Both the position numbers and the translations under genes were made by a program. Below the pieces are notes generated by a model. It made no database searches, was not told the DNA's origin, and was given only the letters and a program-made list of their open reading frames with translations. Below, one piece after another: positions 2,045 to 23,989 of a stretch of 64,000 nt of DNA. The stretch lies in the NCBI GenBank assembly GCA_947630055.1, contig CANRGA010000001.1, positions 10,195 to 74,194 on the forward strand, written 5' to 3'. Position 1 is the first letter of the stretch. Each line of letters starts with the position of its first letter. The stretch comes from an uncultured Bacilli bacterium. Its GTDB lineage: Bacteria; Bacillota_I; Bacilli_A; RF39; UBA660.

Positions 2045-2278
2045 ACATTTTCTCCTTTTTTAAATAATATTTTTACCCCTTCACTTATATATATAGAAGT
2101 TTTTTTACTAATTTCCTTTTATTTTTTTAATTTTTCTTTAAAAATTATTAAAAAATAGACTTTTGAATCATTTTTAAACTATATTTTAATAAATTTTATT
2201 TAATATTTCCTAAATATAATCTTGATAATAAAAATATGGTATGTTAAAATTAATGATAGAGAGTAGGTGTGTTTTTGT

Positions 2279-2980
2279 ATGAAAAAACTTGCTGCATTTT
2301 TTGCTATGTGCGCTTTAATTACAATGCCAGTTAATGCTGCATGTTCTTATACGGAAAAAGCAGAGGCTAATACAAAGGCCGCAAATGTAAAAATAAATTA
2401 TGAGGTTGTTGAAGATAAACAAGAATCTGATATGGGTACTTCAATAAATGAATATTTTAAAATTAGTATTTTAAATGTAACTAAAGAGTTATATGTTGTA
2501 GTTAGTAATGATGTTACTAATGATAAAGTTACTTATACTTTTGATGATGCTAAAGATGGTGTAATAACATTTAATTGGGATAACATTGAAACTATTACCA
2601 ATTTTACATTTACTATTTATGCTTCAAATCAAACTCCATGCTATAATGAAGAATTAAAAACTATTAGAAAACAAACACCAAGATTTAATGACTTTTCTAA
2701 TAGAGCTATATGTGATGGTATGGAAGATTTTTATTTATGTCAAAAATATACAAATATTGCTGAAATAGATGAAAGTATGTTTATTGAAAAAGTAGCAAGT
2801 TTTAAAGATGGCAAAATCACTGAAGAAGGTAAAGATGCTGAAAAAGAGAAAAAAGGAAATAGCATAATAAGTTTCTTAAGAAAAAATAGATGGTATATAA
2901 TAGGTGGATTATTAGTAATAGCTACTGGATCAGGTGTAGCTATAGTAATAAGAAATAGAAAATACAGGGAGGTTAAATAG
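2279..2980 (+). CDS. secreted protein with N-terminal signal peptide and C-terminal transmembrane anchor (first gene of the pilus operon)
   Basis: ATG at 2279 after GAGTAGGTG RBS. MKKLAAFFAMCALITMPVNA signal. C-terminal WYIIGGLLVIATGSGVAIVI then RNRKYREVK. Stop is 2 nt before the next start. Confidence 0.55.
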   Translation: MKKLAAFFAMCALITMPVNAACSYTEKAEANTKAANVKINYEVVEDKQESDMGTSINEYFKISILNVTKELYVVVSNDVTNDKVTYTFDDAKDGVITFNWDNIETITNFTFTIYASNQTPCYNEELKTIRKQTPRFNDFSNRAICDGMEDFYLCQKYTNIAEIDESMFIEKVASFKDGKITEEGKDAEKEKKGNSIISFLRKNRWYIIGGLLVIATGSGVAIVIRNRKYREVK

Positions 2981-2982
2981 TA

Positions 2983-5900
2983 ATGAAGAAAGTAGTAAAA
3001 TTAATAAGTCTATTTGGGCTATTATTAATGATTAATGCTTTAAGAGTAGAAGCGGATATAAAAGCAAATTCATATTCAGATGCAGGTTATTTTGGTGGTG
3101 AAAAAGTACTAGAAGCAAAATTAAATGTTAATGGTACTAACACTACTGCATATTGTCATAATCCAGGTGTTACTGCATTTACACAAAGTGATGTTAGTAA
3201 TAAAATAACTCTTGTAACAAAAAGAAAACTTGGTGATACTAAAAATGGTCGTGCTCAAAATATTTATGATGCCGGATTAATGTCAATTTTAACAAATAAT
3301 AATAAAGACAATGGAAATGCTAACTTTAGTATGGCTAAGTACATAGCAGTTAACTTATATGAACAATTATTCCCAATGTTCAATACCAATGGTAATAATG
3401 GTAGTTCAGAAATTCCTTATTTAAAATATATAGTTAATACACAATTGTATGATAGTGTTAAAGGTGATTTAAAAACATTATCAAATAATATGGGTGCTTA
3501 TAATGTTATTAGTAGTAGAATGAGCGGAGCTAGTAAATGTACTAGTAATTGTGGTTCTAGTTCTGATGTTAATACTGCAGTGTCAATGGTAAAAACTGCT
3601 TTAAAAACAGCTATTAACTATGCTCAAAATGGCGAGGCAACAGCTACAGTTGGTAATGCTATTCAAACTCGTTCAGAAACTAAAGATGATAAAGGAAAAG
3701 TTACTTATAAAGATACAGCAAATCATACAATTACAATTGCTTCATTTGGGGATTCTAATAATAGACCTCGTTCAGTTTATTTAAGCTTTAATTGTGCAAA
3801 TTGTAAAAATGTTACTACAAAATTTTATCTTAATGATAAAGAAGTTAATGATATATCAAAAATTAATTTATTAGATTATACAGATAATGGTTCTGGAGCT
3901 GTTCAATTAAAAATTGAATTTACTGGTGATACTTGTGAAGAAATCAATTACACATTAACAGCAACTTACACTCATTATTCTATTTCACGTTCTGGTTATT
4001 CAGTAGCTAAGTGTTCAAATTCTAATAAATGTCAAGGTTTCTATGTAGCTGATTCTAGTAGTTCAACTGGAACAAAAACAACTTCTATAGAAAATAAAAT
4101 AAGTTTATGTCCAACAAATGCTGATGTATCTCAATGTACTGCTAAAATTGATAATGTTGAATGTGTTGAATGCAAAGCTAATACTCATGAAGTAAACATT
4201 GTTGAAGGATATACTTATCCAAATGATAATACTTGTGATACTTCAGGAGCTACTTTAGATATTAAAAAGTGTATTGCAAATGATGGTGCTATAGATACAG
4301 CAAATCATACATATAAAAATAGTGAACTTTCTCAAGATACAAAAAGCCATAATGCTGGTGTATATTGTAAAGAAGATTATACTTTAAGTATGCCAGGCTC
4401 TATAATGGTTGATACTGGTAGATATTTTACTTTAAAATCATCTATTACAGGAACAGAGAAATGTTATACTAATGATTTATTAAATTCAAAAAGTGTAGCA
4501 AGTGTTAAAGCAACAATAGCGCAACATGGAAAAGAAACCGTAAATGCATATAATGAAATTCAAAAATATAAAGCAATTGAAGCTTGTGTTAATAATGGTG
4601 GAAATTGTATCACTGTAAAAAAAGAAAGAAATTCAACTCCATGTAAATATAAATATTATTTTGTATCATCTACTAGACATTGTAAAGAATGGAATGAAAG
4701 TGGTACTTCATGTGCTAAATATGAAACAGATGATGAATATTTGGCTAGATGTAAATCTTTAGGAAAATATGGATATATTAATTCATCTGGTACCTGTAGA
4801 TATATGCCAGAGGCAAAGCCTTTATATCAATATAGAATTGTTGCGGATTATAAAGTATCATATAATGTTTCTTCATGTGACGGAGGAGGTACTACAACCG
4901 CATCTGATAGAATATATGAAGGTGAGTGGCGTACTTGTGGATATGATCAATATTGTGGTGGAAAAAGATGTTCAGAAGTTTCTACTGAAGCTGATGATGA
5001 TACGATTCCAGAAGTAAGAGAAGAAGTTTCTGAAAATGAAAGAGCCGCAGCTTTAGCTGCTATAGGCCAAAAAGCAACAGGCCACTGGGTAAGTAATGGT
5101 GGTGTTGGTAGTAAGGTATCAGCAGGTGGTAGTTGGGTTGGATCATCAGGCTCTGGTTTAAGTGTACAATTAGGTACTGGTAGTATTATTTCTGATATAA
5201 ATGACTGGAACTCTGCTACTGGATATTATGGTGGTATATTTGGTAATGACTTTGATGATACACCATTCGATGGTGGTTGGAAAATGAGTTATAATTTTGA
5301 TCCAGATATGTATTTCTGGTATCAAGAAGAATATATGAAACAAGCTAGAACAAATCAAATGGATATGTATGATAAATCATTAAAAGATGTTAAGGCTCAA
5401 TATTGTGAAGGTACAGTATCTAATGATTATCAAACTTGTTCAACTGGTTGGAAAGATATTCCATCTGTTGAAAGTGGTAGCGTTTGTGTATGTTGGGGAC
5501 CTGATCCTGGAGACTGTGGAAATAAAAATTATGTATTATCTAAAGTAAGATATGTTATTCAGTCTCAAGAAGCAGAAGCAAAATTTATAACACCAACTCA
5601 ATTTTATACAATAGCACCATCTGGAAGTATAGTTGTAGCTGATCAAGGTAAAAGTGATGAAATACCAAATTCAAAAGAACTTACTAATGGTTTACCTGTT
5701 GGTCTTGGATCAAATGGTACAAGAAGATATGTATTATGGGTAGAAAAATTAGGTGAATATTTTGATACTGATAATTTAGGCCGTGTTTGGGGACAAAGTG
5801 ATAGTGTTATTTCTAAATTACTTAAAGATAGAACAAAATGTAATAATCCTAATTCAGCATTAGTAGATGAAGACAATACTCAAGGTGTAATTCATGATGA

Positions 5901-6807
5901 AGGAGTATATGCATGTAAGTATAGTACTGACTGTCCTAAATCATGTACTAAAGAAGATGATAAATATTATTGTAAAGATGGAGAACCTTGTGATAAAGAA
6001 CAATATGATAAAGAATGCTGTCCAACTTGTCCACCAACAGTAGCATATAAATGTGCTGTAACAACTAATGAAAAAGGTGAAACAGTATATTATGATAAAG
6101 CTGGTAATATAACTACTGAAAAGATTTATAAATCTGAATGTTGTCCTAATGACGAATGTCCTGTAACTTGTGCATTCTGCCTATATGATGGCAATAAGCT
6201 AAATGTTCAATATCGACCAATTACATCAGAGAATGTTAACCCTAATGATAGGGATTTAGGTAAAAACTGGAATTGGGAAGAGCCAATAAATACAGCTTTA
6301 GAATTAAAAGCCTATGTTACTACTAATGAAATAGAAGAAAATGGCGATAGCATTTATGATGTAAATTTTGATAATATAGATGAAAATAATGACTTTGCAA
6401 TGCAAGTTACAATGAATGCACAAATGATTAGTGAAATAAGAGCTTATAATGATAAATATAAAGATGAAGGATATGCTAATAACTCTCTTGAATGTTACGA
6501 TTTAAAAAGTGGTGATACAGTTCATAAAAATGTTTTCTGTTATAGTAACTTTATTGATACTTTAGTAGAAAAATTTGCTACAAATAAAGATGATAGTCCA
6601 ATTAAATTTAATGTAGAAAGACCAATGGGTAATGCAAGAAAAGATACAAAAGAAAATGAAAAATACTTTACTAGTTGGATTTCTGCTGATACTAGTAATT
6701 GGAATGTAACCACTACTAAAGAACTAGCATATTATAAACAACATTATGGTATGGAAATGCAAGATGATAAAGTTGTAGACTACCATGTTGGACCATCATG
6801 GAAATAG
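2983..6807 (+). CDS. large (1274 aa) cysteine-rich secreted protein, candidate pilus-associated adhesin
   Basis: Signal peptide MKKVVKLISLFGLLLMINALRVEA. Many paired cysteines (CPTCPP, ECCPNDECPVTC, CVECKANTHE). No recognisable catalytic motif. Translationally coupled to flanking genes. Confidence 0.65.
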   Translation: MKKVVKLISLFGLLLMINALRVEADIKANSYSDAGYFGGEKVLEAKLNVNGTNTTAYCHNPGVTAFTQSDVSNKITLVTKRKLGDTKNGRAQNIYDAGLMSILTNNNKDNGNANFSMAKYIAVNLYEQLFPMFNTNGNNGSSEIPYLKYIVNTQLYDSVKGDLKTLSNNMGAYNVISSRMSGASKCTSNCGSSSDVNTAVSMVKTALKTAINYAQNGEATATVGNAIQTRSETKDDKGKVTYKDTANHTITIASFGDSNNRPRSVYLSFNCANCKNVTTKFYLNDKEVNDISKINLLDYTDNGSGAVQLKIEFTGDTCEEINYTLTATYTHYSISRSGYSVAKCSNSNKCQGFYVADSSSSTGTKTTSIENKISLCPTNADVSQCTAKIDNVECVECKANTHEVNIVEGYTYPNDNTCDTSGATLDIKKCIANDGAIDTANHTYKNSELSQDTKSHNAGVYCKEDYTLSMPGSIMVDTGRYFTLKSSITGTEKCYTNDLLNSKSVASVKATIAQHGKETVNAYNEIQKYKAIEACVNNGGNCITVKKERNSTPCKYKYYFVSSTRHCKEWNESGTSCAKYETDDEYLARCKSLGKYGYINSSGTCRYMPEAKPLYQYRIVADYKVSYNVSSCDGGGTTTASDRIYEGEWRTCGYDQYCGGKRCSEVSTEADDDTIPEVREEVSENERAAALAAIGQKATGHWVSNGGVGSKVSAGGSWVGSSGSGLSVQLGTGSIISDINDWNSATGYYGGIFGNDFDDTPFDGGWKMSYNFDPDMYFWYQEEYMKQARTNQMDMYDKSLKDVKAQYCEGTVSNDYQTCSTGWKDIPSVESGSVCVCWGPDPGDCGNKNYVLSKVRYVIQSQEAEAKFITPTQFYTIAPSGSIVVADQGKSDEIPNSKELTNGLPVGLGSNGTRRYVLWVEKLGEYFDTDNLGRVWGQSDSVISKLLKDRTKCNNPNSALVDEDNTQGVIHDEGVYACKYSTDCPKSCTKEDDKYYCKDGEPCDKEQYDKECCPTCPPTVAYKCAVTTNEKGETVYYDKAGNITTEKIYKSECCPNDECPVTCAFCLYDGNKLNVQYRPITSENVNPNDRDLGKNWNWEEPINTALELKAYVTTNEIEENGDSIYDVNFDNIDENNDFAMQVTMNAQMISEIRAYNDKYKDEGYANNSLECYDLKSGDTVHKNVFCYSNFIDTLVEKFATNKDDSPIKFNVERPMGNARKDTKENEKYFTSWISADTSNWNVTTTKELAYYKQHYGMEMQDDKVVDYHVGPSWK

Positions 6808-6823: not shown

Positions 6824-7231
6824 ATGAAGGAATCGTATTGGGGATATTGGTTAGTTTTATTAGGTGTATTTGTTGTCGTAATATTGTTATTGATTCAAAA
6901 CTTAACAACAAATAATACAGAAAGCAGTTATTCTATAAGACAAATAAGTGAAGCAGCGATGATTGATGCAGTTGACTATGCATATTATAGAGAATATGGT
7001 GAACTTAAAATAAATAGAGAAAAATTTATTGAAAGTTTTATGAGAAGATTTGCTGAAACAGCTTCATTATCAAACAAATATACTTTAACATTTGCTGGTA
7101 TATATGAAGCACCACCTAAAGTAGGTGTTCAAATAACCAGTAAAACAAATACATATTTTATTGCAAATTCTGCTGAAGAATTTGATATGGAGAATAGAGT
7201 AGAAGCAATATTAGAACAAAGTAATAAATAG
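6824..7231 (+). CDS. small N-terminally membrane-anchored protein, pilus assembly accessory candidate
   Basis: RBS GAAGAAGGGA. Single TM WLVLLGVFVVVILLLI. Operon position between the adhesin-like gene and the CpaB-like gene. Confidence 0.45.
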   Translation: MKESYWGYWLVLLGVFVVVILLLIQNLTTNNTESSYSIRQISEAAMIDAVDYAYYREYGELKINREKFIESFMRRFAETASLSNKYTLTFAGIYEAPPKVGVQITSKTNTYFIANSAEEFDMENRVEAILEQSNK

Positions 7232-7242
7232 GAGGAATAAAA

Positions 7243-8010
7243 ATGGGAAATTTAGTGGCAACATTAAAACGATTTATTCAAAATAAAAATACAGTTACTA
7301 TTTTAGCCGTACTTGCTGGTATTATAATATTATGGTATTTTTATAACTATCGAGTAAATCAAGCCGTAACGACTGTTGAAATACCTTATGCAATTGATCA
7401 AATAGATACACGAAAGAAAATTGAAACAGATAATCTTAAAACTAGAGAAATAACAAGAGCTGCTTTAAAAGATAATGATTTAGTTGAATCAATTGCAGAT
7501 TTAGAGGGTAAATACATATGTGTAGGAACTAGCATACCTGCAAATGGCTTTTTCCATAAATCACAAGTTTGTGAAGAAAGAGATTTACCGAATTCTGTTA
7601 ATGAAAACTTACCAGAAGGATATACTCTTGCTAATATAAAAGTTACAAATGAGACTACATATGCTAACTCTATATCTGAAGGTGATTATATCGATATTTA
7701 TATGTATGCTAAAGATGCTAATAATCAAGCATTATATGGTAAATTAATTGAGAAAATCAAAGTACTAGAAGTAAGAGATAATAGTGGTAAAAATATATTC
7801 TGGGATGCGACTGCTGGTGAATCTGCTCAATTATTATTTGGTGTTCCAGATGAATATGCTGATTTATTCGATATAGCAAGTAGAACAAATGGTATTACTT
7901 TAGTACCTAGATTAAGAAATGCTGCTTATTCAAAAAATCCAGGTGAAACTGAAATTTCTAGTGAAGAATTAAGAGCATTTATAATGAATCAAGTACAATT
8001 AGTAGAATAG
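7243..8010 (+). CDS. CpaB/RcpC-like Flp pilus assembly protein (N-terminal TM, SAF-like domain)
   Basis: 255 aa. TM VTILAVLAGIIILWYFY. Size, topology and position immediately upstream of the CpaF-like ATPase. Confidence 0.4.
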   Translation: MGNLVATLKRFIQNKNTVTILAVLAGIIILWYFYNYRVNQAVTTVEIPYAIDQIDTRKKIETDNLKTREITRAALKDNDLVESIADLEGKYICVGTSIPANGFFHKSQVCEERDLPNSVNENLPEGYTLANIKVTNETTYANSISEGDYIDIYMYAKDANNQALYGKLIEKIKVLEVRDNSGKNIFWDATAGESAQLLFGVPDEYADLFDIASRTNGITLVPRLRNAAYSKNPGETEISSEELRAFIMNQVQLVE

Positions 8011-8033: not shown

Positions 8034-9125
8034 GTGAATGATGCAATATTTTCACAAATTGATTTTGGACCTTTAAAAGAATTTTTAGATGATGATAATA
8101 TAACCGATATTTCTTATGGAAATGGTGGACAAATTCATTTAAAAACTTTGGATAAAGGTGTTTATCGTATTGAAAAGCCAGAAATAAATAATGCACTTTT
8201 AGAAAAATTAGCTTTTCAATGTTCCAATGTTATGGGAAAAACATTTAATATGGCCCATCCATTTCTTGATGCAGAATCAGCTGAATTACGTTTAAACTTT
8301 ATTCATGATTCTATTGCTACTAATGGAATAGCTTGTGTTATCAGAAAAACACCTGCTAAAATAAGACTTAATAAAAAAAAATTAATAAGTGAAAAATATG
8401 TAACTGAAAATTTATTGGACTTTTTACTTACGTGTGTTGAAGGACATTGTAACATTATTGTAAGTGGAGAAACTGGTAGTGGTAAAACAGAACTTGTTAA
8501 ATATTTAGCCAGTCACACTAAAGAAAATGAAAAAGTTATAACAATTGAAGATACACTAGAACTACACTTAGATAAAATTTTTCCTCATCGTGATATAGTA
8601 GCAATGAAAACTAATAATATAGCTAGTTATAGTGATGTATTAGTAGCCTGCATGAGACAAAACCCACGATGGATTTTACTATCCGAAGTTCGTAGTGCTG
8701 AAGCTGTTACGGCAGTTCGTAACTCAATATCATCTGGACATAATATTTTATCTACTATTCACTCAGATCGAGCTTTAAATGTGCCAATGCGTATGTATTC
8801 GTTACTAGAATCAAATCAAGATATTGATCAATTTTTAAAATCAATTCATAGATATGTTCAACTTGCTATTCATGTTAAAGGATATATGAGTGCTGAACTT
8901 GGAAGATTCCAAAGAGAAATAGTAGAAGTTTGTGAATTTTATGTTGATGAAGATAATAATGCGGGTGCTAATATAATATATAAAAAGAATTTAGATGGAG
9001 CAATTCATTTTAATAATCCAACAAAACATTTAAAAGAATATTTAGGCAGTCAAGGAGTTGTTATTAAAGACAATTTATTTGTTGCAGATAATGAATCAAA
9101 TGAAGAAGCAATAGATACATTATAA
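8034..9125 (+). CDS. CpaF/TadA-family secretion ATPase (VirB11-like)
   Basis: Walker A IIVSGETGSGKTE. Asp box ITIEDTLEL. Walker B-like RWILLSEVR. His box LSTIHSD. 363 aa. GTG start with GGACGGGG RBS. Confidence 0.85.
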   Translation: MNDAIFSQIDFGPLKEFLDDDNITDISYGNGGQIHLKTLDKGVYRIEKPEINNALLEKLAFQCSNVMGKTFNMAHPFLDAESAELRLNFIHDSIATNGIACVIRKTPAKIRLNKKKLISEKYVTENLLDFLLTCVEGHCNIIVSGETGSGKTELVKYLASHTKENEKVITIEDTLELHLDKIFPHRDIVAMKTNNIASYSDVLVACMRQNPRWILLSEVRSAEAVTAVRNSISSGHNILSTIHSDRALNVPMRMYSLLESNQDIDQFLKSIHRYVQLAIHVKGYMSAELGRFQREIVEVCEFYVDEDNNAGANIIYKKNLDGAIHFNNPTKHLKEYLGSQGVVIKDNLFVADNESNEEAIDTL

Positions 9126-9143: not shown

Positions 9144-10049
9144 TTGCGAACATTACCAGAATTAATAATTATGATAGGACTTGCAATATTTGTTATCATA
9201 TATCGTAATAATCAAAATGGTAAGTCTTATAAAGAAGTTTTGAAAAAAGCTGAAGACATATACGACAAATATGCACCGTATTCTTTTAAAGTTGTAAGAG
9301 AAAAAAGTAAGGAATTAGGTCAAGAATATACTACAAAACAATATGTAATGCAAATAGTAATAATGGGTGGATTTGCTGCTTTAATTGGTTATTTCTATTT
9401 TTATAGTATTATTTGGGCTGCAGTATATGCAGTTGCAACAGTAGCATTTATTCCTTATTTAGCTTATTTACGTTGTCAAAGAGTATATAGTGAATTTATA
9501 TTTGAACAAATTCAAACATATACTACTAACGTTATTATGGAATTTAATACTACTCAAAGCTTTGTAAAAAGTTTAGAGGGTGTTAGAGATTCTGGTATAA
9601 TAGAAGAACCTGTACTTTCTGATATAAAAAAAATGATAGATTTATCTTACAAGAATGGTACAATTGATGAATCTATTGAATATTTCAATCAAAAGTATCC
9701 ATTTTATATGGTTAAAAATATGCATCAATTATTTTTACAAATAACCAAAGAAGGTGCAAAAGATGCGGGAGAATCATTAGAAAACATGTCAATGGATATC
9801 GATGCCCTAGTTGAAGGTGTTTATCGTGATCAAATGGATAGAAAAAATTTCCATAAAAGATTTATAACTTTTGCTGTAGTATTATTTTCTTTAGTTGTAG
9901 TAGTAGAATTTATGTTAGGTAAAGATAACTATATAGAACTTTTAGATATATGGTATGTTCAGTTAATATTACATGCTATTGTTTTAATAAATGTATATTT
10001 CTTGATAACAGGAGAGAAATATTATAATGAAGATGTGGGGGCTGAATAA
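9144..10049 (+). CDS. TadB-like inner-membrane platform protein (T2SSF-type)
   Basis: TTG start after AGGGAGGTG RBS. TM blocks at N-terminus, middle and C-terminus as in TadB. Directly downstream of the ATPase. Confidence 0.55.
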   Translation: MRTLPELIIMIGLAIFVIIYRNNQNGKSYKEVLKKAEDIYDKYAPYSFKVVREKSKELGQEYTTKQYVMQIVIMGGFAALIGYFYFYSIIWAAVYAVATVAFIPYLAYLRCQRVYSEFIFEQIQTYTTNVIMEFNTTQSFVKSLEGVRDSGIIEEPVLSDIKKMIDLSYKNGTIDESIEYFNQKYPFYMVKNMHQLFLQITKEGAKDAGESLENMSMDIDALVEGVYRDQMDRKNFHKRFITFAVVLFSLVVVVEFMLGKDNYIELLDIWYVQLILHAIVLINVYFLITGEKYYNEDVGAE

Positions 10050-10837
10050 TGCAAGTAGAAATAATTATTATTGGTATTCTAATCTTTGTTGTAATGACTT
10101 ATAATGGTCAAGTTAGTATTAAAGATTTAATTAGTGATAACTTTTATTTATTTAGAAAGTTAAAAGAAGACGATTGGGATTTTTATGTTAGTGCAAAATA
10201 TGGAGATAGTGTTTCATCTGATGCAATTTTTATGAAGAGAATTCGAAATGGTTTAATGGTAATTGTAATTAGTTTATTTTTCTTCATAAGACAACTTGAT
10301 GCTCTTTATATATTAATATCTTTTGTTTTAGGTTTCTTAGTATTTAAAATGGACTATATGAATATTAAATCTTATTATAAAACTCATATGTTTAAAATAG
10401 ATAGTATGTTACCTCACTATTTAAAAAGTATTGAAATATTAATTCAACACTATACAGTTCCAGTTGCTATTGGTAAATCAATAATTGATGCACCTGATAT
10501 ATTTAAAGATGGATTACAAGAAATGATTAATGAAATAAATTCAGGTGATGACTCAATTAACCCTTATATGAATTTTGCTAAAAAATATCCGGTAAGAGAT
10601 TCAATGCGTATGATGCGTCTTTTATATCGTTTAAGCTTAGGAAGTCAAGATCGTAAACAAGAACAAATGTTGATGTTTTCAAGAACAATATCTAATTTAC
10701 AACAAAAAGCTAGAGAGACGAAATATAAAAATAGACTTGATAAGATGGAAGGCAAAACAATGAATATGTTAATGTCAACTGGTTTTGGAGTAATGATCTT
10801 ATTAGTCCTAGCCGTATTACAAATGATGGATTTATAA
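10049..10837 (+). CDS. TadC-like inner-membrane platform protein (T2SSF-type)
   Basis: Start overlaps TadB stop. Three hydrophobic blocks with TadC-like spacing. Confidence 0.55.
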   Translation: MQVEIIIIGILIFVVMTYNGQVSIKDLISDNFYLFRKLKEDDWDFYVSAKYGDSVSSDAIFMKRIRNGLMVIVISLFFFIRQLDALYILISFVLGFLVFKMDYMNIKSYYKTHMFKIDSMLPHYLKSIEILIQHYTVPVAIGKSIIDAPDIFKDGLQEMINEINSGDDSINPYMNFAKKYPVRDSMRMMRLLYRLSLGSQDRKQEQMLMFSRTISNLQQKARETKYKNRLDKMEGKTMNMLMSTGFGVMILLVLAVLQMMDL

Positions 10838-10990: not shown

Positions 10991-11269
10991 ATGAAAGAAG
11001 CAACAGGTGAATTAAATATGACAGTTGTAACAGTTGTAGCAATTGCAGCATTAGTAGCTTTCTTTTATTTAGTAATATGGCCAACTATTAAAACAGGTAT
11101 GGCATTAAACTCTGCTTGTAGTACATATGCATCAACTGGTGGTACAGTTACTTTAGATGATGGTGGTACTATTGTATGTACAAAGAAAACTGCAACAACA
11201 ACGGCAACATGTACTTACAATCCATCTGCAACCGAAGGTGGAAAACCACAAACTAAAAACTGTGAATAA
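10991..11269 (+). CDS. Flp-like pilin with atypical class III leader (MKEATG/ELN...), Cys-containing C-terminus
   Basis: Short charged leader KEATG followed by 25-aa hydrophobic helix. 4 Cys in C-terminal half. Strong RBS. Confidence 0.5.
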   Translation: MKEATGELNMTVVTVVAIAALVAFFYLVIWPTIKTGMALNSACSTYASTGGTVTLDDGGTIVCTKKTATTTATCTYNPSATEGGKPQTKNCE

Positions 11270-11285
11270 TAGTGAGTAGTAATAT

Positions 11286-11552
11286 ATGAAAGAGACAACA
11301 GGTGAATTAAACGCTACTGTAGCAGTTATGTTAGCTATTGGTGTTTTAATAGCTTTTTTTTACTATACTTTGTGGCCACTTATTAAAAATAATTTCGATA
11401 AAAATTCTCAATGTAGTAAAGCTATATGTGAAAAATGCGATTTAAATGGTGATGGAAAAGCAGATGTTGGATGCGAAACAGTAACTTGTTATCCAAAAGG
11501 TGAAGAACATCAACCTGGTGTAAATGACTTTCAATGTGTCTATAAAGGTTAA
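11286..11552 (+). CDS. Flp-like pilin paralog (MKETTG/ELN...), 6 Cys
   Basis: Same leader and helix as 10991. C-terminus CSKAICEKCDLNGDGKADVGCETVTC. Confidence 0.5.
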   Translation: MKETTGELNATVAVMLAIGVLIAFFYYTLWPLIKNNFDKNSQCSKAICEKCDLNGDGKADVGCETVTCYPKGEEHQPGVNDFQCVYKG

Positions 11553-11566
11553 GGAAGTGGAATAAA

Positions 11567-12079
11567 ATGCGGGAAGCAATTGGAGGAATATCCATATTTC
11601 AAATAGTTATATTTTTTATATTGTTATTTACAGGGGTTATGTGCTTAACTATTAATCACTCTAAAGCTTTTGGCGTTAAAGATGAAATAATAACAATAAT
11701 AGAAAATGAACCATTAGGAAGTACTTCTACTTCTTCTTTTGGTTTGAGTGAAAGTACAATGGATAAAATTGCTGAGCATTTAAAAGATGCTGGATATAGA
11801 ATTACTGGTAATTGTCCGAATGGATATCAAGGATATAATCGGGAAGGAAATCCCACTAATAATGATGCATCATTTTGTATAAAAGCTAATAAGGTAGAAG
11901 ATAAATTTTATAAAGATGCTAGAGAAAAATGTACTGGCAATAAATGTGTTGTTACAACTGGTGATTTTCCAAATATGGTATACTACGATATAGTATTATT
12001 TTTCCAATTAGACATTCCATTTGTTAAAGATTTATTTGAATTTAATGTAATGGGTTCTACTAAGACTATATTTGGATAG
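11567..12079 (+). CDS. TadE-like minor pilin/pseudopilin (MREAIGG/ISIF...)
   Basis: Leader REAIGG then hydrophobic helix. 170 aa. Operon context. Confidence 0.45.
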   Translation: MREAIGGISIFQIVIFFILLFTGVMCLTINHSKAFGVKDEIITIIENEPLGSTSTSSFGLSESTMDKIAEHLKDAGYRITGNCPNGYQGYNREGNPTNNDASFCIKANKVEDKFYKDAREKCTGNKCVVTTGDFPNMVYYDIVLFFQLDIPFVKDLFEFNVMGSTKTIFG

Positions 12080-12089
12080 GTGATATAAA

Positions 12090-12551
12090 ATGCGCGAATC
12101 AATAGGAACTCAAACAATTTTTAAAGCTGTCTTGATTTTCACTTTTTTATTTTCTGGCTTTATTGCAGTTGCAATAACATATAATAAAGCCTTTAAATTA
12201 AAAAATGAGACTATTAATATTTTAGAAAAATATGAAGGCGTTAATAAACAATCTTTAACTATCATTAATAACTATTTGAATCAAAATGGTTATTCTACTA
12301 AAAATCCTTGTGATACCACTGAATATGGAGTAGCAGATTTAAAAAATCCAACATATGAAAAAAGTAATCCTAATAGTAGGTATTATTATTGTCTTTCTTC
12401 TGAGGTAAAAAATAATCAAATATTTTATGGTATTAAATTATTTTCAAGATTTAATTTACCTATAATTGGAGATTTATTCTATTTTAGAGTTACTGGAGAG
12501 ACAAAAGGTATTAAATTATATGATAATAAACAAAGATTAGAAAATAATTAG
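12090..12551 (+). CDS. TadE-like minor pilin/pseudopilin paralog (MRESIG/TQTIF...)
   Basis: Same leader class. 153 aa. Confidence 0.45.
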   Translation: MRESIGTQTIFKAVLIFTFLFSGFIAVAITYNKAFKLKNETINILEKYEGVNKQSLTIINNYLNQNGYSTKNPCDTTEYGVADLKNPTYEKSNPNSRYYYCLSSEVKNNQIFYGIKLFSRFNLPIIGDLFYFRVTGETKGIKLYDNKQRLENN

Positions 12552-12557: not shown

Positions 12558-13544
12558 GTGAATATGAATGTAATAGTATCAAATAAATATCAATCATTAC
12601 TAGGAACACTAGAAATAGATGTAATTAAAACAATTAATGGTGAATTTACGGTTCAAGATTTGGTAAATCAATTTAATAATTTTTTCTTTAATAAAATGAT
12701 AATTGATATAACTGCTATTAAAAATTATGAAAATATTAATATAATGCGGGAATTATCATTGAATTTTGAAATGGATAAAATAATTATCTTGTTAGATGAT
12801 TCACCAAGTGTAAATTCAGCAAATTATTTATCTCAATTGGTATCTTTTGGTATTTATAATTTTACAAGAAGTGTAGATGCTATTCCATTTTTAATAGATA
12901 ATCCAAATTCTTATAAAGATGTAGCGGCATATCAAAATTTAAATCCAGATACTAATTTGGACAGTAAAAAAGTTAAAGAAATTGCTCCTGTTAAAATGGA
13001 GCAAAGAGTAATTGGCTTTAAGAATGTTACTGAACATGCAGGAGCTACTACTTTAATATATATGTTAAAAAAGCATTTACAAAGTGAATATAAAGTTAAA
13101 GCAATTGAAGTAAATGCAACCGATTTTGAAAATTTTAATGATAAATCACTTGAAAGTGCTGATTTTATGAATATTTCAATAAAATTAGCAAATAATAGTG
13201 ATGCCGATGTTATTTTAGTGGATTTAAATGATGGTCCAGAAACAATTTGTACCGAAATTATTTATCTAATTGAACCAGGTATTTTAAAATTAAATAAATT
13301 AATTAGGAATGATCGAAAAATATTTGAAAAATTAAAGAATAAAAAAATCGTTTTAAATAGAAGTGTTTTAAACGATAAAGATGTTCATGATTTTGAATAT
13401 GAAAGTGGTAGTAAAATATTCTTTAATATTCCAAGTTTAGATGAAAAATTAGATAATAATAAAAAAATAATTGAATTTTTAATTGCTTTAGGATTTTCTA
13501 GATTAGATGTAGAAAATAATAATAAAAAATTTGGTATTTTATAA
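12558..13544 (+). CDS. TadZ/CpaE-like protein (receiver-like N-domain plus degenerate ParA/MinD-like domain)
   Basis: Deviant P-loop region VIGFKNVTEHAGATTLIYMLKK. N-terminal alpha/beta region. Last gene of operon. Confidence 0.35.
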   Translation: MNMNVIVSNKYQSLLGTLEIDVIKTINGEFTVQDLVNQFNNFFFNKMIIDITAIKNYENINIMRELSLNFEMDKIIILLDDSPSVNSANYLSQLVSFGIYNFTRSVDAIPFLIDNPNSYKDVAAYQNLNPDTNLDSKKVKEIAPVKMEQRVIGFKNVTEHAGATTLIYMLKKHLQSEYKVKAIEVNATDFENFNDKSLESADFMNISIKLANNSDADVILVDLNDGPETICTEIIYLIEPGILKLNKLIRNDRKIFEKLKNKKIVLNRSVLNDKDVHDFEYESGSKIFFNIPSLDEKLDNNKKIIEFLIALGFSRLDVENNNKKFGIL

Positions 13545-13620: not shown

Positions 13621-13800
13621 GAATTAAGGTGGTCTCATTATTTAAAATTAATAAAGATAGATAATGAAATTAAAAGAAGACAAAAATTTCATTAAAGATC
13701 CATATGTATTAGAATTTTTAGATATAAAAGAAAAATACTGGATAATTTTGCTATATTGTGGTATTATATGAAACAATTGATTTTGAAGGGGTGTTTTGTT

Positions 13801-16800
13801 ATGAAATACGCAAAATATAAGTATATATTTATGTTATTTTTAGTGATCATTTTTTTACCATTTAAAGTTATGGCCAAAAATATTAATTTAGATATTGATA
13901 AATATGATTTAACTATTGGTGATGAAATAACAGTAAGTGTTAGTTTACCAGATGAAATAAAAGCTTATGCAGTTATGGCAACTTTTACTTATGATGAAAA
14001 TGTTTTTACTAAAATAGATATTGATGATTTTTCTATTTTAAATAAAAATTTAAATATTTCTTATAATGATAATACTAAAAAATTTGGTTTAATAAACGAA
14101 ACAGGTAAATTAGATAATGAATTATTTCAAGTTCATTTAAAAGTAAAGGAAAATGCTAATGTTGGCGATACTAATATAGCTTTAACAAATATAGTAGTGT
14201 CTGATGGAACAAAGAAAGAAGAATATAATAAGACTATTAAAACTATTTTAGTTACAAGAGATGCTAAGCCTGGTGAAGAAATACCTATTAATAAATCTAA
14301 TAAAGTAGAAGAAAGTAAAGAAATTGAAACTAAAGTATTTACATCTAAGCCGTTTATGATTACTTTAGGTATAAGTGCTATTGTAATTTTAGGATTAGTG
14401 ATTTATATTACCTTATTTAAAAAAGATAAAAAGACTTTAAAAAATATTCTTGTTGGTTGTGCAACTATTTTAACCATTTCTTTTGTAGTTATATATATAT
14501 TTAATATTAATAAAAGAGATGTTAATAATGATGGAGTTAAAGATTACAATGATGCAAAAGAAATACTTAAATATCTTTTAGATATTACAGGTACTGAAGA
14601 AATTGATAATAATAAAAATACTTCTAATAAAAAACCAAGTATTAACCCAAATAATAAATATGATGTTAATAATGATGGTAAAATTGATATAAATGATGTT
14701 GGTAATAATACGGAAAATGTTACTGAAAATACAAAAGTGATTTTAAAAGAAAAGAACGATAATAAAGATTTTTATGTCAAAAAAGGTGATATTACTTTAA
14801 AATTTACTGCAGAAATTACACCTAAAAATGTAACAATAACTAAAGTAAAAATTAATAATAAATATTATGATGTTATCAATAATAATGGCGAATATTCTGT
14901 TACTATAGAGTCTAATAAAGCAGGTAAATACGAATTTGCTATTACTAGTGTTATTTTATCTAATGGCAAAGAAATAAATGTTAAACTTAAATTTGTAAGA
15001 GAAGTTTTAAAAGTTACTCCTTATGTTAATAAATTTAATTTAAATGATGAAAAAGGTTCTTTAAGTTTTGAACTAGTAGATCCAGAAGATGCTTTTATTA
15101 GTGGTGAAGTTACTGTTTATGATGGTGAAAAAGTAATTGTCAAAGAAAATGTTAAAAGTACAACTAAAATTAATGATATTCCTATTGATGAAGATAAAAT
15201 TTATCGTTTAGAAGTAATGGGAGAATATGATTTAGATAGCAATAAAAATGATGATAATAATCATTTTACTAATCAAACTATGTTTAACCATTCCTTTATG
15301 ATAGGGGGAGATTATAACTTCACTTTAACTGATGTAGGAATTACAGATGCGATTAAAAAGGGTGAAAAGCCAGTTATAAGTTTTAAAAGTACAAATACTA
15401 AAGGAGTGACTGTTGAAAATGCTTCTTTAACTATTGGAAATAAAACTAATAATTATGTCATTAGTAAAATAGATGGTGATAATTATGAAGTTATTTTAGA
15501 AGATGCTGATACATCTGTAGGTAAACATAAAGTAAATTTAGATAGTGTTAGATTAAAATCTTTAAAGACGTTTAATAATAAAAAAGACTATGATGCTAAT
15601 ACACTAACTTATACTGTGTTAAAAGATTCGCCAAAAGTAACTAGTTTGAATGTAGAAGAAGATTCCGAAAATAAAAGTATTATTGCTAAATTTAGTATAA
15701 ATGATGAAAGTAGTGCTATTAGTAGTTTAAAAGTTGTTTTAGTAGATTCAACTGGAGCAGTTATTGCATCACAAATTTTAACAAGAGAAGAATACTTAGA
15801 AAAAGGTGAAGTATCACTATCTTATGATGGTAGTACAGATGGTAATTATAAAGTTAAAATTTTAGCTGATTATGCCCTAAGTGATCAATATAACTATACT
15901 GATAAACCAATTGGGGAAGAAGCAATTACAGTTAATACTGGTGTATATATTGAAGCTATTGAATATGTTGAAACAAAACAAAATAATCGTGTTATTGATA
16001 GTGGTAAATTTGCTAGTAAAGGCCAAAAAATGTATCGAATGAACTTTATCGTTCATACCAAAGGAATAAGATCATATTCACGTCTTTCATCTATTACGAT
16101 TAATGGTTTAAATTATATTGCTAATGGTGGAGCATCTGCCATAGAAAATGCTGAAGGTGAATATAGATATACCTCAACTGTTGCTATTACTGTGCCAAAA
16201 GAAGCAGGTATTATGACAATTACTGCTAATCGTGTTCAATTAGAAGTTAATAGTTATAATTACAAGGTTAATCAATTTTATCATGTTCCAGATGTATCTA
16301 AAGAATATGAAGTATTAAAAGATATTCCAAGTATTGCTAATTTAAAAATACAAAAAGAAGATTATGAAGCAAAAGAAGTTACTTTTAATTTTGATGTTAT
16401 CGACAAAGAAGATTCATTTATAAGTGGTAAATTAGAATTAAATGGTAAGAGTGAAGAGATAAATAAAGGTAATAATACAGTTACTTTTACTGGTATTGAA
16501 ACTGATAAAGTTCATGATTTGATTTTTAAAGCTGATTATAAATTAAGTACTGGTGAAATTGAAGATCCAATTAATCAAACAGAAAAAAGTAATGCGGAAA
16601 TATATAAAGTTAAATATGGTTTATATAAAGAAGATACTTATAATGATATTAAGATAAGTGAAATTACTCCAGTTAGTGAAAAGAACAATAAATATTTTGA
16701 AAAAAACGAAGATATTAAATTAAATCTTATTATTGTAGGCATTCCCGAGTATTTAAATGTTTATCCAGAAAGAGTTATTATTAATGATAAAGAATATGAT

Positions 16801-19800
16801 TCAAAAGCTTTAATGACTTGTCATGAAGTAACTTTAAAGGGTTATACTTCATCTGGTGAAAAAGAACTTAAAGTTAGTGCCATCATTTTAAATAATGGTA
16901 AAGTTATAACTTTAGATAAAGAAGTAACTATTGAAGTATTAAAAGATATACCAAAAATAACTGATTATAAATATTCTATTAATGATAATAGTATTAAAAT
17001 TACTTTAGCTAATAAAGATAGTGATTCATCTTTAGATGGTGATTTACAAGTTAAAGTTACTGATGATACAGGGAAAGAACTTTATAATAGTAAATATCAA
17101 GAGACAATTGAGTTTAAAAAGAATAAAGATGCTTTAAGATATTATATTTCTGTTATAGGTAGTTATGATAGAGATATTGATAAACAAGAAGATAGTGAAA
17201 ACTATAATAAAGATATTAAATTATTAGATGAAACTATTTCTCTAGATAAAAATAATATTGAATTAAAAGATATTACTTATATAACCTTATATAAAGAAGA
17301 AAATGATAAAATATTAGAGATTAGAGAAATAACTAAAGAAGAATTAGAACAAAATATTGAAAAATATTTTGTCGAAGTTAATATGGAAAATATGCCTTCT
17401 GTTTATGCTAAACTTAAAAAAGTTACTATTGAAGATAATCATTTAATGCTAATTTTAGATTATGAATATGTAACTAAAGAAGAAAGTAAATCTAAAGAAA
17501 TCAAAGTTGATTATGGGGCTATAATTAATGGTAAAGCAAAAAATGAAACTAATCCATTAAATGAATTTAATATCTTAAAAGAAAGAATTAAAAATAATGA
17601 ACATATCATTTTAACTCATGATTATGATTTAAAAGATATTGAAGTTACTACAAGTTATTATTTTGAAAACTTTAGTGGTTCAATTGATGGTAATGGTCAT
17701 AAAATAACTAATTTAAGTAAACAATTATTTAATGAACTTAGTAATGCGGAAATTAAAAATTTAATAGTAGAAAATGCTAATATAAGTGGTGCTGTTCGTG
17801 GTATTTTAGCCGATAAAGGTACAGATGTAGTAATTAATAATGTTCATTTATATAATGGTAATATTAAAGCTAATCTTGTTACTAATGGAACTGGTATTAT
17901 GTTTGGTGAAACAAGAAATAGTATAGAAATATCAAATTCATCAATTGTAAATAGTTCAGTTAGTGGTGGCAAAAGAACTGGTGGCTTTATTGGTCAAGCT
18001 TATAATAAAACAACGATTACTAATAGTTATATCAATGATAGTAGTGTAACTGGTAATAATGACGCTATTGGTGGCATTATTGGCGAAGTAAGTAGTGCTA
18101 ATAATGTTTCTATGACTAATTGTTATAGTAAAGTTACTATGGATGGTGGTGCTGGTAATGCTAAAGCTGGTATTTTAGGCTATACTAATAGTAGCGGTGC
18201 AACTAAATTAATTAATAGTTTAAGTATGTCTCAAGGAAATAGTGGTACGAGAGTATATGGTAATGGTATCTCTGCTACTAATGTCTATGAGTTAAAAGAA
18301 TCTACTATGAGATCGCAAGCTGGTGGCCAAATTAAAGAAATAACTGGTAATGATATTAATAAAGAATTCTTTATTAATTCATTAAATTGGGATGAAGAAG
18401 TGTGGAATTTAGATAATGTATCAGCTGATGTACCTCCTATTTTAAAAGGCGAAAAATTTGAGCCTGTGAAAAGCCCAATAGAAGCTGAAGATGGTTATGA
18501 TCCAAATAAAAGAATACTTTATAATAACTTAATGAAATTAATGCCTTTCTATGATAGTGAAAAAATAGTTAGAACTGGTATGCATATTACTGATAATAAT
18601 TTACTTAATAAAGAAATTCAACATATTGTGCCAATTGATAATAAAGGAAGTATTGTTACATATTTAACAAGTGATAATTTAAAGAAAATAAGTAAGATAA
18701 AAGTAGTATATAAAACGAAAGAAAAAGTTACTTATGATGTAAAATTTGATAATACTTATGATATGGTAGCAAGTTATCGTATACCTGATTTAAATATCGA
18801 TTATACTTATAACCATTATATTATTGATGCTAACTCTCAAGTAGTAAATAATATAACTAATTATTTAAAAGATTTAAGTTATACAAATAATTTAGATACT
18901 TTAACTGCTACTAAAGATAGTAGAATATTAAGAGATTTCTATAATGATGTTACTAGTAAAGAATTAAAAGAATTTACTTTAAAATATTTATCTAATAGTA
19001 ATTATACTAATACCACTAACAATGATAGTATTAATAGTCATTTGGAAAGTGAAATTAAAAAAGATAAAAAAATTGAAAAAGTATTATATATGTATAATTA
19101 CTTTAGAAGATTCTATGATGTTGAAATAGATGGTATGAAATTATATGATTTTATGCTATTTAACATGAATGGTTTTGATGAATCATTAACAAGCCAAATG
19201 ATAGCCCGTATTTATTTACAAGATGGTAATAACTTTAACACTGGTTCAACTGGTACTAAATATCGTGATTTACTAGGGGGTTATACTAAACTTAATACTA
19301 TTGCCAAATTCATCGAATATATGGTAACTGAATTTAGTAATGATAATATGAATGATTGGGTAAGGAAAGAATTTGCAGGTTACTTAGTAGAAATTCCAGT
19401 TAAAGGTCATGAAAAAGACATTCAATATACTTTATGGGATCACTTTAGTAATGAAGATGCTGTTTATAATAATCCACATAGAGCATATGATATGATGTTA
19501 CCAATTTTAACATTGCCAAAGAATGCAGCTTATATAATTTCTACGCCAGTTCAATTTATCATCGGGGCGCAAAGAAGTTATATTGAAGATCCAGAAGATC
19601 CTACTTCTCAAAGTATTTTCCAAAGAAGAGTTAAAAGCTACGCTAAGAGAATGGAAACTTATTTTGATACAGCTTATAAAATTTTAGGCGATGCAAAATA
19701 CTTTAATGATATTCATACTTTCCAACTTGATAAAAGATTTGCTTATGATGAAAATGGCGCAATGGTATATCAACAAGCCTATGTTACAGAGGAGCCATTC

Positions 19801-21353: not shown

Positions 21354-22313
21354 ATGAAAGGCAAAATTATGACAGAAGAAAAAATATACAACGAAATAGT
21401 TGAGTTAATTGAAGAAAGAGAAGTAAAAAAGTTTGTTAGAGAATTTAAAGAAAATTCAGAAACATTAAAAACTAATTGGGAGATAGGTAGATTACTAGTT
21501 AATGCTCAAGGTGGAGAAGCTAGAGCAAAATATGGTGAAAATCTAATTAAGAAATGGGGCGAAAAATTATCTTTAGAATATGGTAAGAATTATAATAAAA
21601 GAAATCTTATGTATTATAGACAATTTTACTTAACATTTCAAAATGTGAACACAGTGTGTTCACAATTTAGTTGGTCAATATGTAGATGCTTATTATCAAT
21701 AAAAAATGAGAATGAGAGAAACTATTATATAAATCAAGTAATACTTAATAATTTATCTGTTAGAGAGTTAAGAAATGAAATAAAAAGTAAAGCCTTTGAT
21801 AGATTATCTTATGCAGATAAAAATAACATTAAGTTAATAACAGAGAATAATAATTCAATAACATTAAGTGATATGATAAAAGATCCGATAATTATTAAAA
21901 CTGATAAAGATACAACTAATTTAACTGAACAAAAATTACATGAAATATTAATTGAGTTAGTTGAAAATCATTATATGGAATTAGGAGCAGGTTTTGCTTT
22001 AATAGGTCATGAATATAAATGCAAAATAGATAATAGAACTTATAAAATAGATTTATTATTCTTTAATTATAAAATAAATGCCTTTGTTGTAGTAGAAGTG
22101 AAGATAAAAGAATATAATCCAAAAGATAGAGGGCAAATAGAATTATATATGGATTATGTTGATAAAAATATAAAAGAAAATTATCATAATAAAACAGAAG
22201 GTATATTAGTAGTTAGAGAAAAGAATAAACTAGTTACTAAATATATTTCTAATAATAATTTATATATTACTACTTATTTATTAGAAAATAAAAAAGTACA
22301 AAATGGCAAATAA
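21354..22313 (+). CDS. DUF1016/YhcG-like PD-(D/E)xK nuclease family protein (intact, 319 aa)
   Basis: ELGAGFALIGHEYKCKIDNRTYKIDLLFFNYKINAFVVVEVKIKE core. N-domain homologous to copies at 89..2044. Confidence 0.75.
   Translation: MKGKIMTEEKIYNEIVELIEEREVKKFVREFKENSETLKTNWEIGRLLVNAQGGEARAKYGENLIKKWGEKLSLEYGKNYNKRNLMYYRQFYLTFQNVNTVCSQFSWSICRCLLSIKNENERNYYINQVILNNLSVRELRNEIKSKAFDRLSYADKNNIKLITENNNSITLSDMIKDPIIIKTDKDTTNLTEQKLHEILIELVENHYMELGAGFALIGHEYKCKIDNRTYKIDLLFFNYKINAFVVVEVKIKEYNPKDRGQIELYMDYVDKNIKENYHNKTEGILVVREKNKLVTKYISNNNLYITTYLLENKKVQNGK
21644..21664. repeat. perfect 10-bp inverted repeat, 1-nt spacer (TGTGAACACA g TGTGTTCACA) at the homologous position of the plus-strand DUF1016 copy
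   Basis: Read directly. Encodes NVNTVCSQFSW. Extended arms are imperfect (one bulged A). Confidence 0.9.
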
Positions 22314-22763: not shown

Positions 22764-22788
22764 TTTTTAGTAATTAATGTGTATAGAA

Positions 22789-22826
22789 AATAGTGTCAAC
22801 AAAGTTAACACTATTTTTTTGTTTTA
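22789..22826 (+). terminator. rho-independent terminator
   Basis: AATAGTGT..ACACTATT hairpin followed by TTTTTGTTTT. Confidence 0.6.
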
Positions 22827-22847
22827 ATTTAATATTTACAATAACCA

Positions 22848-22856: not shown

Positions 22857-22872
22857 TTAGGTGGGTGAGTCT

Positions 22873-23970: not shown

Positions 23971-23989
23971 AAAAGTTTGAGGTGATAAA

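Follow-up and report, generated by a model that had tools for sequence, protein, structure and literature searches.

The window analysed here, a 64,000-nt stretch of DNA from an uncultured Bacilli bacterium (GenBank assembly GCA_947630055.1, contig CANRGA010000001.1, positions 10,195 to 74,194; coordinates below are those of the window), contains an operon whose sequence lends good support to its being a Tad-like type IV filament machine. The operon sits within a Gram-positive conjugation cluster (VirB4, VirD4, VirB6, PrgI) of an integrative element, and encodes, in order, a DUF5411 protein, a CpaB-like protein, a CpaF-like ATPase, TadB-like and TadC-like proteins, four smaller proteins designated pil1, pil2, ps170 and ps153, and a 328-amino-acid (aa) protein. 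It is very probable that the four smaller proteins serve as the major and minor subunits of such a filament, and the sequence data partly support the view that they represent a separate family of Tad-like pilins whose N-terminus differs from that of Flp, encoded in a Gram-positive conjugation cluster. Our overall reading, that this is a Tad-like (type IVc or archaeal-type) filament module whose subunits are cleaved in trans and which serves mating-pair formation on a conjugative element, has in our judgement about an even chance of being correct.

A common N-terminus in five proteins

The proteins with the common N-terminus are as follows, with a slash at the putative cleavage site.

10991-11269, plus strand: pil1, candidate major pilin 1, 92 aa, MKEATG/ELNMT, transmembrane (TM) helix, Cys43, Cys63, Cys74 and Cys91
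11286-11552, plus strand: pil2, candidate pilin 2, 88 aa, MKETTG/ELNAT, six Cys, pil1 paralogue
11567-12079, plus strand: ps170, minor-pilin-like, 170 aa, MREAIG/GISIF
12090-12551, plus strand: ps153, minor-pilin-like, 153 aa, MRESIG/TQTIF, ps170 paralogue
6824-7231, plus strand: DUF5411 protein, 135 aa, MKESYWG-YWLVLL and then a TM helix; PF17424, 5.7e-53

An initial annotation of this DNA had described, as Tad-like pilins and pseudopilins, four open reading frames (ORFs), pil1, pil2, ps170 and ps153, that begin with M[KR]E[AST][IT]G and continue into a hydrophobic helix of 22-25 residues. All four are present as described, with a hydrophobic stretch of approximately 22-25 residues after the Gly, and a six-frame scan (for ORFs of 40 aa or more that open with a start codon and have M[KR]E-x(1-5)-G and an uncharged hydrophobic stretch) indicates that the pattern is not due to chance: only five ORFs in the window have a start of the M[KR]E..G type, all of them on the plus strand and in one operon. 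The fifth is the DUF5411 protein, which had been overlooked, as had the position of the operon within a conjugation cluster. The DUF5411 gene is the first of the Tad-like operon and is kept in 48 related loci; its product could be either a minor pilin or a bitopic protein involved in assembly, and our literature search for DUF5411 returned one unrelated paper.

The annotated start codons can be trusted, since a purine-rich ribosome-binding site lies 8-13 nt upstream of ATG, TTG or GTG in 86 homologous pil1 genes, and since codons 3-6 of these genes vary synonymously (GCA/GCG/GCT/GCC, GGT/GGA/GGC/GGG) while MKEATG stays the same. By this pattern of codon variation, the leader residues are under purifying selection. 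The 150 best cluster representatives all align from residue 1, so that no version of the protein has a longer leader. The related loci give the consensus M-[KR]-[EQD]-[AST]-[ITVM]-[G>S>A], after which come about 22 hydrophobic residues. K or R is invariably found at position 2, and mostly E at position 3 (Q in 24 of 75 ps153 sequences). Gly6 is found in 77 of 79 pil1, 66 of 70 pil2 (the other four having Ser) and 69 of 72 ps170 sequences (the other three having Ser), while DUF5411 proteins have a Gly at position 7 in 42 of 43 cases; position 6 is G, S or A in more than 97% of the members of four families. The N-terminus thus has the makings of a class III-type leader, being short and polar, with a basic residue, a small residue at -1 and some 20 hydrophobic residues next.

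It does not resemble the N-terminus of Flp. The motif G/xxxxE[YF], reported as missing from these pilins, is indeed absent from them and plainly present in the reference loci that we retrieved (DESG/AATVEYGL, DDAG/AATLEYGL, SDRG/PSTLEYVF and EESG/SMLVEFGL). The Glu at +1 noted in pil1 and pil2 is confined to these two families and lacking in ps170, ps153 and DUF5411, a distribution that holds across related loci. The +5 residue is Thr in both pil1 and pil2, so the Glu+5 typical of bacterial pilins is not present. The ELN[MA]T segment (11012-11023 and 11307-11318) forms, with N-x-T at +3 to +5, a formal N-glycosylation sequon, of which N9 and T11 are invariant in pil1. We saw no glycosylation genes, and N-x-T is more likely to be a polar pair inside the helix core than a glycosylation site.

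The pilin families

The pil1 family comprises 1,823 clusters at 90% identity and 628 clusters at 50% identity, none of the former with a Pfam domain or a name. At least 412 pil1 loci occur in species-representative genomes, nearly all of them metagenome-assembled genomes (MAGs) of uncultured gut "Bacilli" or "Tenericutes"; the sources are rabbit, goat, chicken and human, and the organisms include Ca. Coprovivens, Ca. Ventrenecus and Clostridium sp. CAG:1000. The second pilin gene, pil2, is present in 75 related loci. The pil1 residues that are invariant or nearly so are MKEATGELNMT, A17, F25, Y26, W30, P31 and the four cysteines. Mean pairwise identity among pilin homologues is 85% over residues 1-31 and 37% over the remaining, Cys-bearing part; type IV pilins characteristically combine a conserved helix for polymerisation with an exposed head that varies. 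Four cysteines are found in 75 and six in 45 of 145 pil1-like and pil2-like representatives, so that the Cys-rich character pointed out initially extends to 120 of the 145. This feature is unusual in comparison to Flp only, and a disulfide-stabilised C-terminal domain is normal in type IVa and type IVb pilins.

Profile-profile comparison with hhalign makes pil1 and pil2 paralogues (99.9%), and likewise ps170 and ps153 (100%, E = 1.4e-50). The first 29 residues of pil1 and pil2 align in register with those of ps170 and ps153 (up to 86%, P = 5e-6). The AlphaFold 2 (AF2) model of ps170 is lollipop-shaped, in the manner of a pilin, with a 41-residue N-terminal helix that starts at residue 7 and then an alpha/beta head; Foldseek returned no PDB match for the model. 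One family member has a weak match to Pilin_N (0.0028). On sequence grounds, the separation of this pilin family from Flp and TadE is supported. The distinct Tad-like pilin subclass proposed in the initial annotation is supported in these respects, with an ATPase nearest to CpaF, a weak match to CpaB, TadB/TadC-like proteins by hhalign and the lack of any Flp, TadE or N_methyl match in 48 members.

The assembly machinery

The remaining genes of the operon are listed below.

7243-8010, plus strand: CpaB/RcpC-like protein, 255 aa, N-terminal TM helix; TIGR03177, 8e-10; PF16976, 3.2e-6
8034-9125, plus strand: secretion ATPase of the TadA/CpaF-archaeal clade, 363 aa; PF00437 (T2SSE), 2.5e-29, above cut-off
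9144-10049, plus strand: probable TadB-like polytopic inner-membrane platform protein, 301 aa, from hhalign
10049-10837, plus strand: probable TadC-like second platform protein, 262 aa, from hhalign
12558-13544, plus strand: conserved cytoplasmic protein, 328 aa, always after the pilin genes, in 77 related loci

The best solved relative of the ATPase is Caulobacter CpaF (1.8e-18), followed by archaeal GspE/FlaI and then by VirB11; it reaches no NCBIfam equivalog cut-off. The scores of the CpaB-like protein fall below the curated cut-offs for both families (38 bits against 71 for TIGR03177, and 27.5 against 28.8 bits for PF16976). Assignment of the platform proteins to TadB and TadC is moderately supported, by remote similarity in sequence. 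With a reference set of only six TadB/TadC sequences, from the Ancylobacter, Rhodococcus and Jeotgalibacillus plasmid loci, hhalign gives the 9144-10049 protein a probability of 81% (P = 1.2e-5, 227 co-linear columns) against TadB/TadC and the 10049-10837 protein 41% (P = 2.9e-4) against canonical TadB, the control of canonical TadB against TadC giving 90%. The second protein also matches pLS20 gene 39 and its pZB18 homologue (74%, P = 2.8e-5). The two platform proteins have no similarity to each other detectable by hhalign, and the AF2 model of the TadB-like protein is too poor to use. A database search with the TadB-like profile found only close unannotated relatives, in more than 8,000 clusters, and no link to T2SSF. 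The 328-aa protein has no Pfam, NCBIfam or PDB match; inspection by eye suggests that it could be an analogue of TadZ/CpaE whose ParA-like P-loop has degenerated.

The gene order matches that of a monoderm Rhodococcus plasmid locus, which runs SAF/CpaB, a gene in the TadZ position, CpaF, TadB, TadC, Flp and TadE-like genes.

Comparison with known filament and conjugation systems

Like the Tad/Flp systems of Aggregatibacter (tad), Caulobacter (cpa) and the Rhodococcus plasmid (our locus L091), the operon has a CpaF-like ATPase, two probable single-domain TadB/TadC-like proteins and a weakly matching CpaB-like protein, has small major pilin genes and then larger minor-pilin genes in the same order, and, as in other monoderms, has no secretin. 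It differs in that the module has no Flp_Fap or TadE domain and no G/xxxxE[YF], the major pilins having Glu+1 instead; in that the leader is six residues in length rather than about 20-30; in that the pilins, at approximately 86 aa after the putative cleavage, have a head with four or six cysteines where Flp is a helix-only protein of about 50 aa; and in that the locus has no TadV and no recognisable TadZ and is embedded in a conjugative type IV secretion system (T4SS) cluster. A six-residue leader is odd in relation to Flp only, being ordinary for type IVa pilins (MKAQKG in P. aeruginosa PilA).

The nearest plasmid ATPases, at 31-33% identity, are in conjugative plasmids of the Firmicutes (pLS20 genes 36-41, pXO2/pAW63, the Enterococcus pZB18/pHT-like plasmids and the Listeria pLM80-like plasmids). 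These share with the window, in the same order, a DUF5411-like gene, the ATPase, two membrane proteins, small N-anchored proteins and a VirB2-like gene, and then T4SS genes. In pLS20, gene 36 is DUF5411-like (1.4e-5, weak), gene 37 encodes the ATPase, genes 38-39 membrane proteins, the second of which matches the TadC-like family as given above, and genes 40-41 small anchored proteins; gene 45 is a T4SS_pilin (PF18895, 1.3e-7, above cut-off). The small plasmid proteins are unlike those of the window in being 47-50 aa in length and starting with MLDQN.DR, and the plasmids have neither M[KR]E..G nor Cys-rich pilins. The MLDQN.DR protein is conserved, has a TM helix after this start, occurs as two identical copies in pLS20 and could be a Flp-sized subunit. 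Judging from sequence and gene order, pLS20 genes 36-41 (L086, 7979-13208) and their Enterococcus counterparts (pZB18; L087, 6636-11745) appear to be a distant version of the module. Previously, pLS20 gene 37 has been described as a putative VirB11, genes 36 and 38-41 were left without an assigned function, and the plasmid family was said to lack VirB2 (Val-Calvo et al. 2021, PMC8557374).

Archaeal type IV pilins and archaellins, whose class III signal peptides are removed by PibD, FlaK or EppA, share with the window's proteins a short leader, G, A or S at -1, a long hydrophobic helix and no obligatory Glu5. EppA substrates have a non-hydrophobic Gln at +1 that is able to cyclise, which parallels the Glu+1 seen here. 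The differences are that the -2 residue here is T, I or V and not the K or R preferred by the archaeal enzymes, that the host is bacterial, and that the sequences show no significant similarity. Denise et al. place the origin of the Tad ATPase clade in the archaea (PMC6668835).

With the type IVb conjugative pili of the IncI plasmids R64 and TP114 and of the PAPI-1 island, the module has in common that a type IV filament, here a probable one, is encoded by a conjugative element beside its T4SS, in those systems for mating-pair formation (PMC12857230, PMC9045228); those pili, however, belong to diderms and have PilS/PilV pilins with canonical leaders and unrelated sequences. The ComG pseudopilus of the Firmicutes likewise has pilins of about 90 aa in a monoderm, and its ComC would be the likeliest host enzyme for any cleavage in trans. 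Its KG/FTLxE motif with Glu5, N_methyl domain and PilB-clade ATPase were not found here. As for the question of a linked peptidase, the Ancylobacter reference locus has its own prepilin peptidase, and the R64 type IVb system likewise has its own, PilU.

How the subunits might be processed

If the preferred reading is correct, the subunits would insert with the N-terminus in the cytoplasm, and the hexapeptide would be cut off after the small residue 6 by a host-encoded A24 prepilin peptidase of the ComC/PilD type. The ATPase and platform would polymerise the two major pilins by way of their near-invariant N-terminal helices, with variable, disulfide-stabilised C-terminal knobs exposed on the filament, and the larger Glu-less subunits might prime or cap it, as the Glu5-less GspK does in the type II secretion system. 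Glu+1, instead of Glu5, may neutralise the new N-terminus of the major pilins; as a speculation, by analogy with the Gln+1 of EppA substrates, this Glu might pair with its own amino group or cyclise onto it to give pyroglutamate. The probable role of the filament would be to form mating pairs on behalf of the neighbouring T4SS, in the way that IncI plasmids use type IVb pili.

A number of observations weigh against this reading. There is no Peptidase_A24 match in the scanned window ORFs of at least 90 aa, and no A24-like peptidase among 33 polytopic ORFs located no more than 10 kb away from the 80 related loci. The -2 residue is T, I or V and not K or R, there is no Glu at +5, and the net charge of the leader is about zero. 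The leader is invariant, though cleaved leaders usually drift, and ps153 has at position 6 Gly in only 54 of 75 sequences, with Ser in 17, Ala in two and Thr in two (about 28% in all). Flp_Fap (PF04964), TadE (PF07811) and N_methyl have no match among the window proteins (E<=0.1) or in the 48 family members (E<=0.05); hhalign of the pilins against reference Flp, a comparison suggested as a check in the initial annotation, and against TadE does not exceed 33% and reveals no relationship; and the pilin and ps170 profiles find among PDB sequences only a chance TM match and no solved pilin, nor was any sequence relation to ComGC detected. The platform proteins have no Pfam T2SSF match and no PDB sequence match, and the set of TadB/TadC references was small.

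Three ORFs considered as peptidases, a TMEM164-like protein (24891-25619), a VTT/DedA protein (39006-39599) and 24153-24875, were rejected, as none is A24-like. The initial suggestion of a different peptidase recognition rule presupposes cleavage, and with no A24 enzyme linked to the module it is unproven. Prepilin peptidases are often common to several systems and encoded apart from them, and MSH loci are without one (Denise et al. 2019, PMC6668835), which makes a host ComC or PilD acting in trans plausible. Cleavage after Gly6 by a host peptidase would be the most likely route, with uncleaved pilins as the main rival.

In that rival, which we consider unlikely, the filament is the same and M-K-E-x-x-G is kept in the mature subunit, where it would serve the platform as a cytoplasmic tag for docking or topology, with Glu7 or the conserved Glu3 taking the canonical role of Glu5; no peptidase would be needed, which would suit a mobile element with many hosts. 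The missing A24 gene is accounted for, and a hexapeptide held invariant by purifying selection would be odd for a leader that is discarded; indeed, this invariance, the fixed length without longer variants and the Ser, Ala or Thr at position 6 of ps153, which make Gly6 replaceable there, fit an uncleaved N-terminus almost as well as a cleaved one. K or R at position 2 and E at position 3 are, moreover, common to all five families, and Glu7-Leu8 set on the Glu5-Leu6 of type IVa pilins is, by eye, a reasonable match. Yet the small residue (G, S or A) right before the helix resembles a cleavage site, the helix of the AF2 model begins at residue 7, and a charged, uncleaved K-E end would have to be buried in the filament core or protrude from it. 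In addition, it is established that all characterised type IV filament subunits are processed by an A24 enzyme (PMC6668835).

It is also conceivable, and we think distinctly unlikely, that there is no filament, the ATPase being the VirB11 of a Gram-positive T4SS and the small bitopic proteins parts of a channel or of its assembly that span the membrane or cell wall and have a common N-terminal membrane anchor. The nearest plasmid homologues of the ATPase are annotated as "CpaF/VirB11 family" genes in pLS20, pXO2/pAW63 and the Listeria and Enterococcus plasmids, including the putative VirB11 of pLS20 cited above; the best NCBIfam E-value is for VirB11 (1.5e-31, below cut-off); and the module is embedded in a T4SS cluster. 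Among solved relatives, however, CpaF and the archaeal pilus and archaellum ATPases rank ahead of VirB11, and the ATPase is accompanied by a CpaB-like gene and two TadB/TadC-like proteins. An invariant helix, a hypervariable Cys knob and two tandem paralogues are the pattern of an exposed polymer subunit, and the lollipop shape of the ps170 model points the same way.

Two further proteases bear on the N-terminus. A gene for a CPBP/Rce1-like intramembrane protease (PF02517 in 11 of 11 members) lies divergently upstream of the first gene, a p237 homologue, in 12 of the approximately 14 loci with a visible flank (L014, L016, L019, L024, L025, L029, L033, L041, L054, L064, L068 and L072), and also occurs in the homologous conjugation cluster of E. 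faecium pZB18 (L087, 1650-2096); in the related loci it is paired with a gene for a membrane metallophosphoesterase. Cleavage by a non-A24 enzyme such as this intramembrane glutamic protease would draw on that proximity, but it appears very improbable: the window has no CPBP homologue (hmmsearch, E<=10) and its pilin genes are nonetheless intact, for which reason we downgraded CPBP to a weak candidate as leader peptidase, and we know of no precedent for pilin maturation by CPBP enzymes. The gene and its metallophosphoesterase partner may have to do with immunity or processing or may merely be flanking chromosome. Signal peptidase I is the other enzyme. Had these proteins ordinary Sec signal peptides, they would be secreted Cys-rich peptides, and a site similar to A-x-A (TGMA/L) is possible after the hydrophobic segment of pil1. 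That segment, with 22-24 residues, is however the most conserved part of the protein (85% as opposed to 37%), where signal peptides are short and drifting; the n-region has no net positive charge; and proteins of 135-170 aa with the same N-terminus are modelled with a continuous 41-residue helix. We have rejected signal peptidase I cleavage on the conservation pattern and consider it scarcely credible.

The conjugative element and its host

Positions from about 2.2 to 41 kb of the window are an integrative conjugative element of an uncultured, walled, low-GC gut Bacilli bacterium. The window has a GC content of about 26%, and housekeeping genes (SecE, NusG, BipA, TyrRS, BacA) begin at about 44.6 kb. 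LtaS and LytR-CpsA-Psr are encoded in the DNA upstream of the window, from which it follows that the host is a walled monoderm. In most of the 80 related loci the pilin module directly adjoins the T4SS genes, with synteny kept. VirB4, a VirD4 coupling protein, VirB6-like and VirB3/PrgI-like proteins and a cell-wall hydrolase are all encoded here; we identified no relaxase or integrase among the element genes, and megablast of the operon against plasmids gave no match. The conjugation genes are as follows.

22398-31527, plus strand: T4SS block with VirB2/T4SS_pilin-like, VirB6-like, PrgI/TcpE and VirB4 genes
22398-22763, plus strand: VirB2/T4SS_pilin-like gene; PF18895, 2.3e-4, below cut-off
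22861-23970, 24153-24875 and 25714-26574, plus strand: genes with the same VirB2-like C-terminal domain
26589-28862, plus strand: pLS20_p028/VirB6-like gene
28885-29205, plus strand: PrgI/TcpE gene
29177-29740 and 29740-31527, plus strand: VirB4, in two ORFs
31652-38636, plus strand: cell-wall hydrolase and coupling-protein block, including two bitopic proteins with no assignment
31652-34504, plus strand: M23/lysozyme cell-wall hydrolase
36417-38636, plus strand: VirD4 coupling protein

The products of the four-gene array at 22398-26574 have a common C-terminal domain with two TM helices, similar to VirB2/T4SS_pilin, which in the last three genes is fused to Cys-rich N-terminal parts (by eye and from BLAST labels). 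Recent reviews describe Gram-positive T4SSs as lacking VirB2, with the exception of the Patescibacteria. Of the two overlapping VirB4 ORFs, the 187-aa N-terminal part matches positions 99-276 of the Mbov_0397-family VirB4, and the P-loop is in the 595-aa part; the split is probably natural and not a frameshift error, because it is kept in 24 related loci.

Between the pilin module and the T4SS genes lies a gene (13756-21174) for a 2,472-aa surface protein with a C-terminal M26 IgA1-specific metalloendopeptidase region (1.1e-31) and a weak match to dockerin-like repeats (E = 6.9e-4, below cut-off). It is inserted at this place in this lineage only (three of 83 loci) and, by its sequence, would be cargo of the IgA-protease type carried by a gut conjugative element. 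Three DUF1016/YhcG PDDEXK-nuclease genes (89-1267, 1457-2044 and 21354-22313) may mark insertions or rearrangements, two of them being at the element's left edge, the place of the CPBP gene in relatives, and the third after the gene for the 2,472-aa protein. Cysteine is abundant in nearly all the proteins that the element exports (p237, a 1,274-aa surface protein, the pilins, ps170 and the VirB2 fusions; 2267-6807 and elsewhere), which is atypical for an anaerobic Firmicute, and we recognised no thiol-disulfide oxidoreductase in the element. The chromosomal part of the window carries an IS605-family OrfB/TnpB gene (59721-60905) with a Cas12f-like TNB domain.

Implications

According to the reviews, conjugative elements of Gram-positive bacteria do without pili and depend on adhesins (PMC8014075, PMC12102498, PMC12857230), and a 2025 review of T4SSs lists type IV pili together with T4SSs for IncI plasmids and PAPI-1 only, with no Gram-positive example mentioned. 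In the literature that we could cover, which was incomplete, neither this pilin family nor a Tad reading of such modules turned up, and searches with the N-terminal peptide strings found no papers either. What the window shows is a seemingly complete Tad-like filament module joined to a Gram-positive T4SS cluster. The module abounds in gut metagenomes, and its subunits break two textbook rules for bacterial prepilins, those of Glu5 and of the linked peptidase. A bolder proposal, which we think improbable to much the same degree as the VirB11 explanation, is that the module builds a Tad-derived mating pilus for Gram-positive conjugation, its subunits being a new class of pilin matured without A24 (uncleaved, or cut by another intramembrane protease) and hence portable between hosts, with the "VirB11" modules of pLS20, pXO2, pHT and the Listeria plasmids being degenerate versions of it.

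If the subunits are ordinary A24 substrates of a host ComC, the result would be a new family of pilins recognised through a less strict motif, useful for annotation and otherwise modest. If the filament exists, it would help in studying how gut mobile elements locate their recipients and offer a natural test of the need for Glu5 and for leader cleavage, and it would suggest rereading the "VirB11" genes of the genetically tractable plasmids of the pLS20 and pXO2 type.

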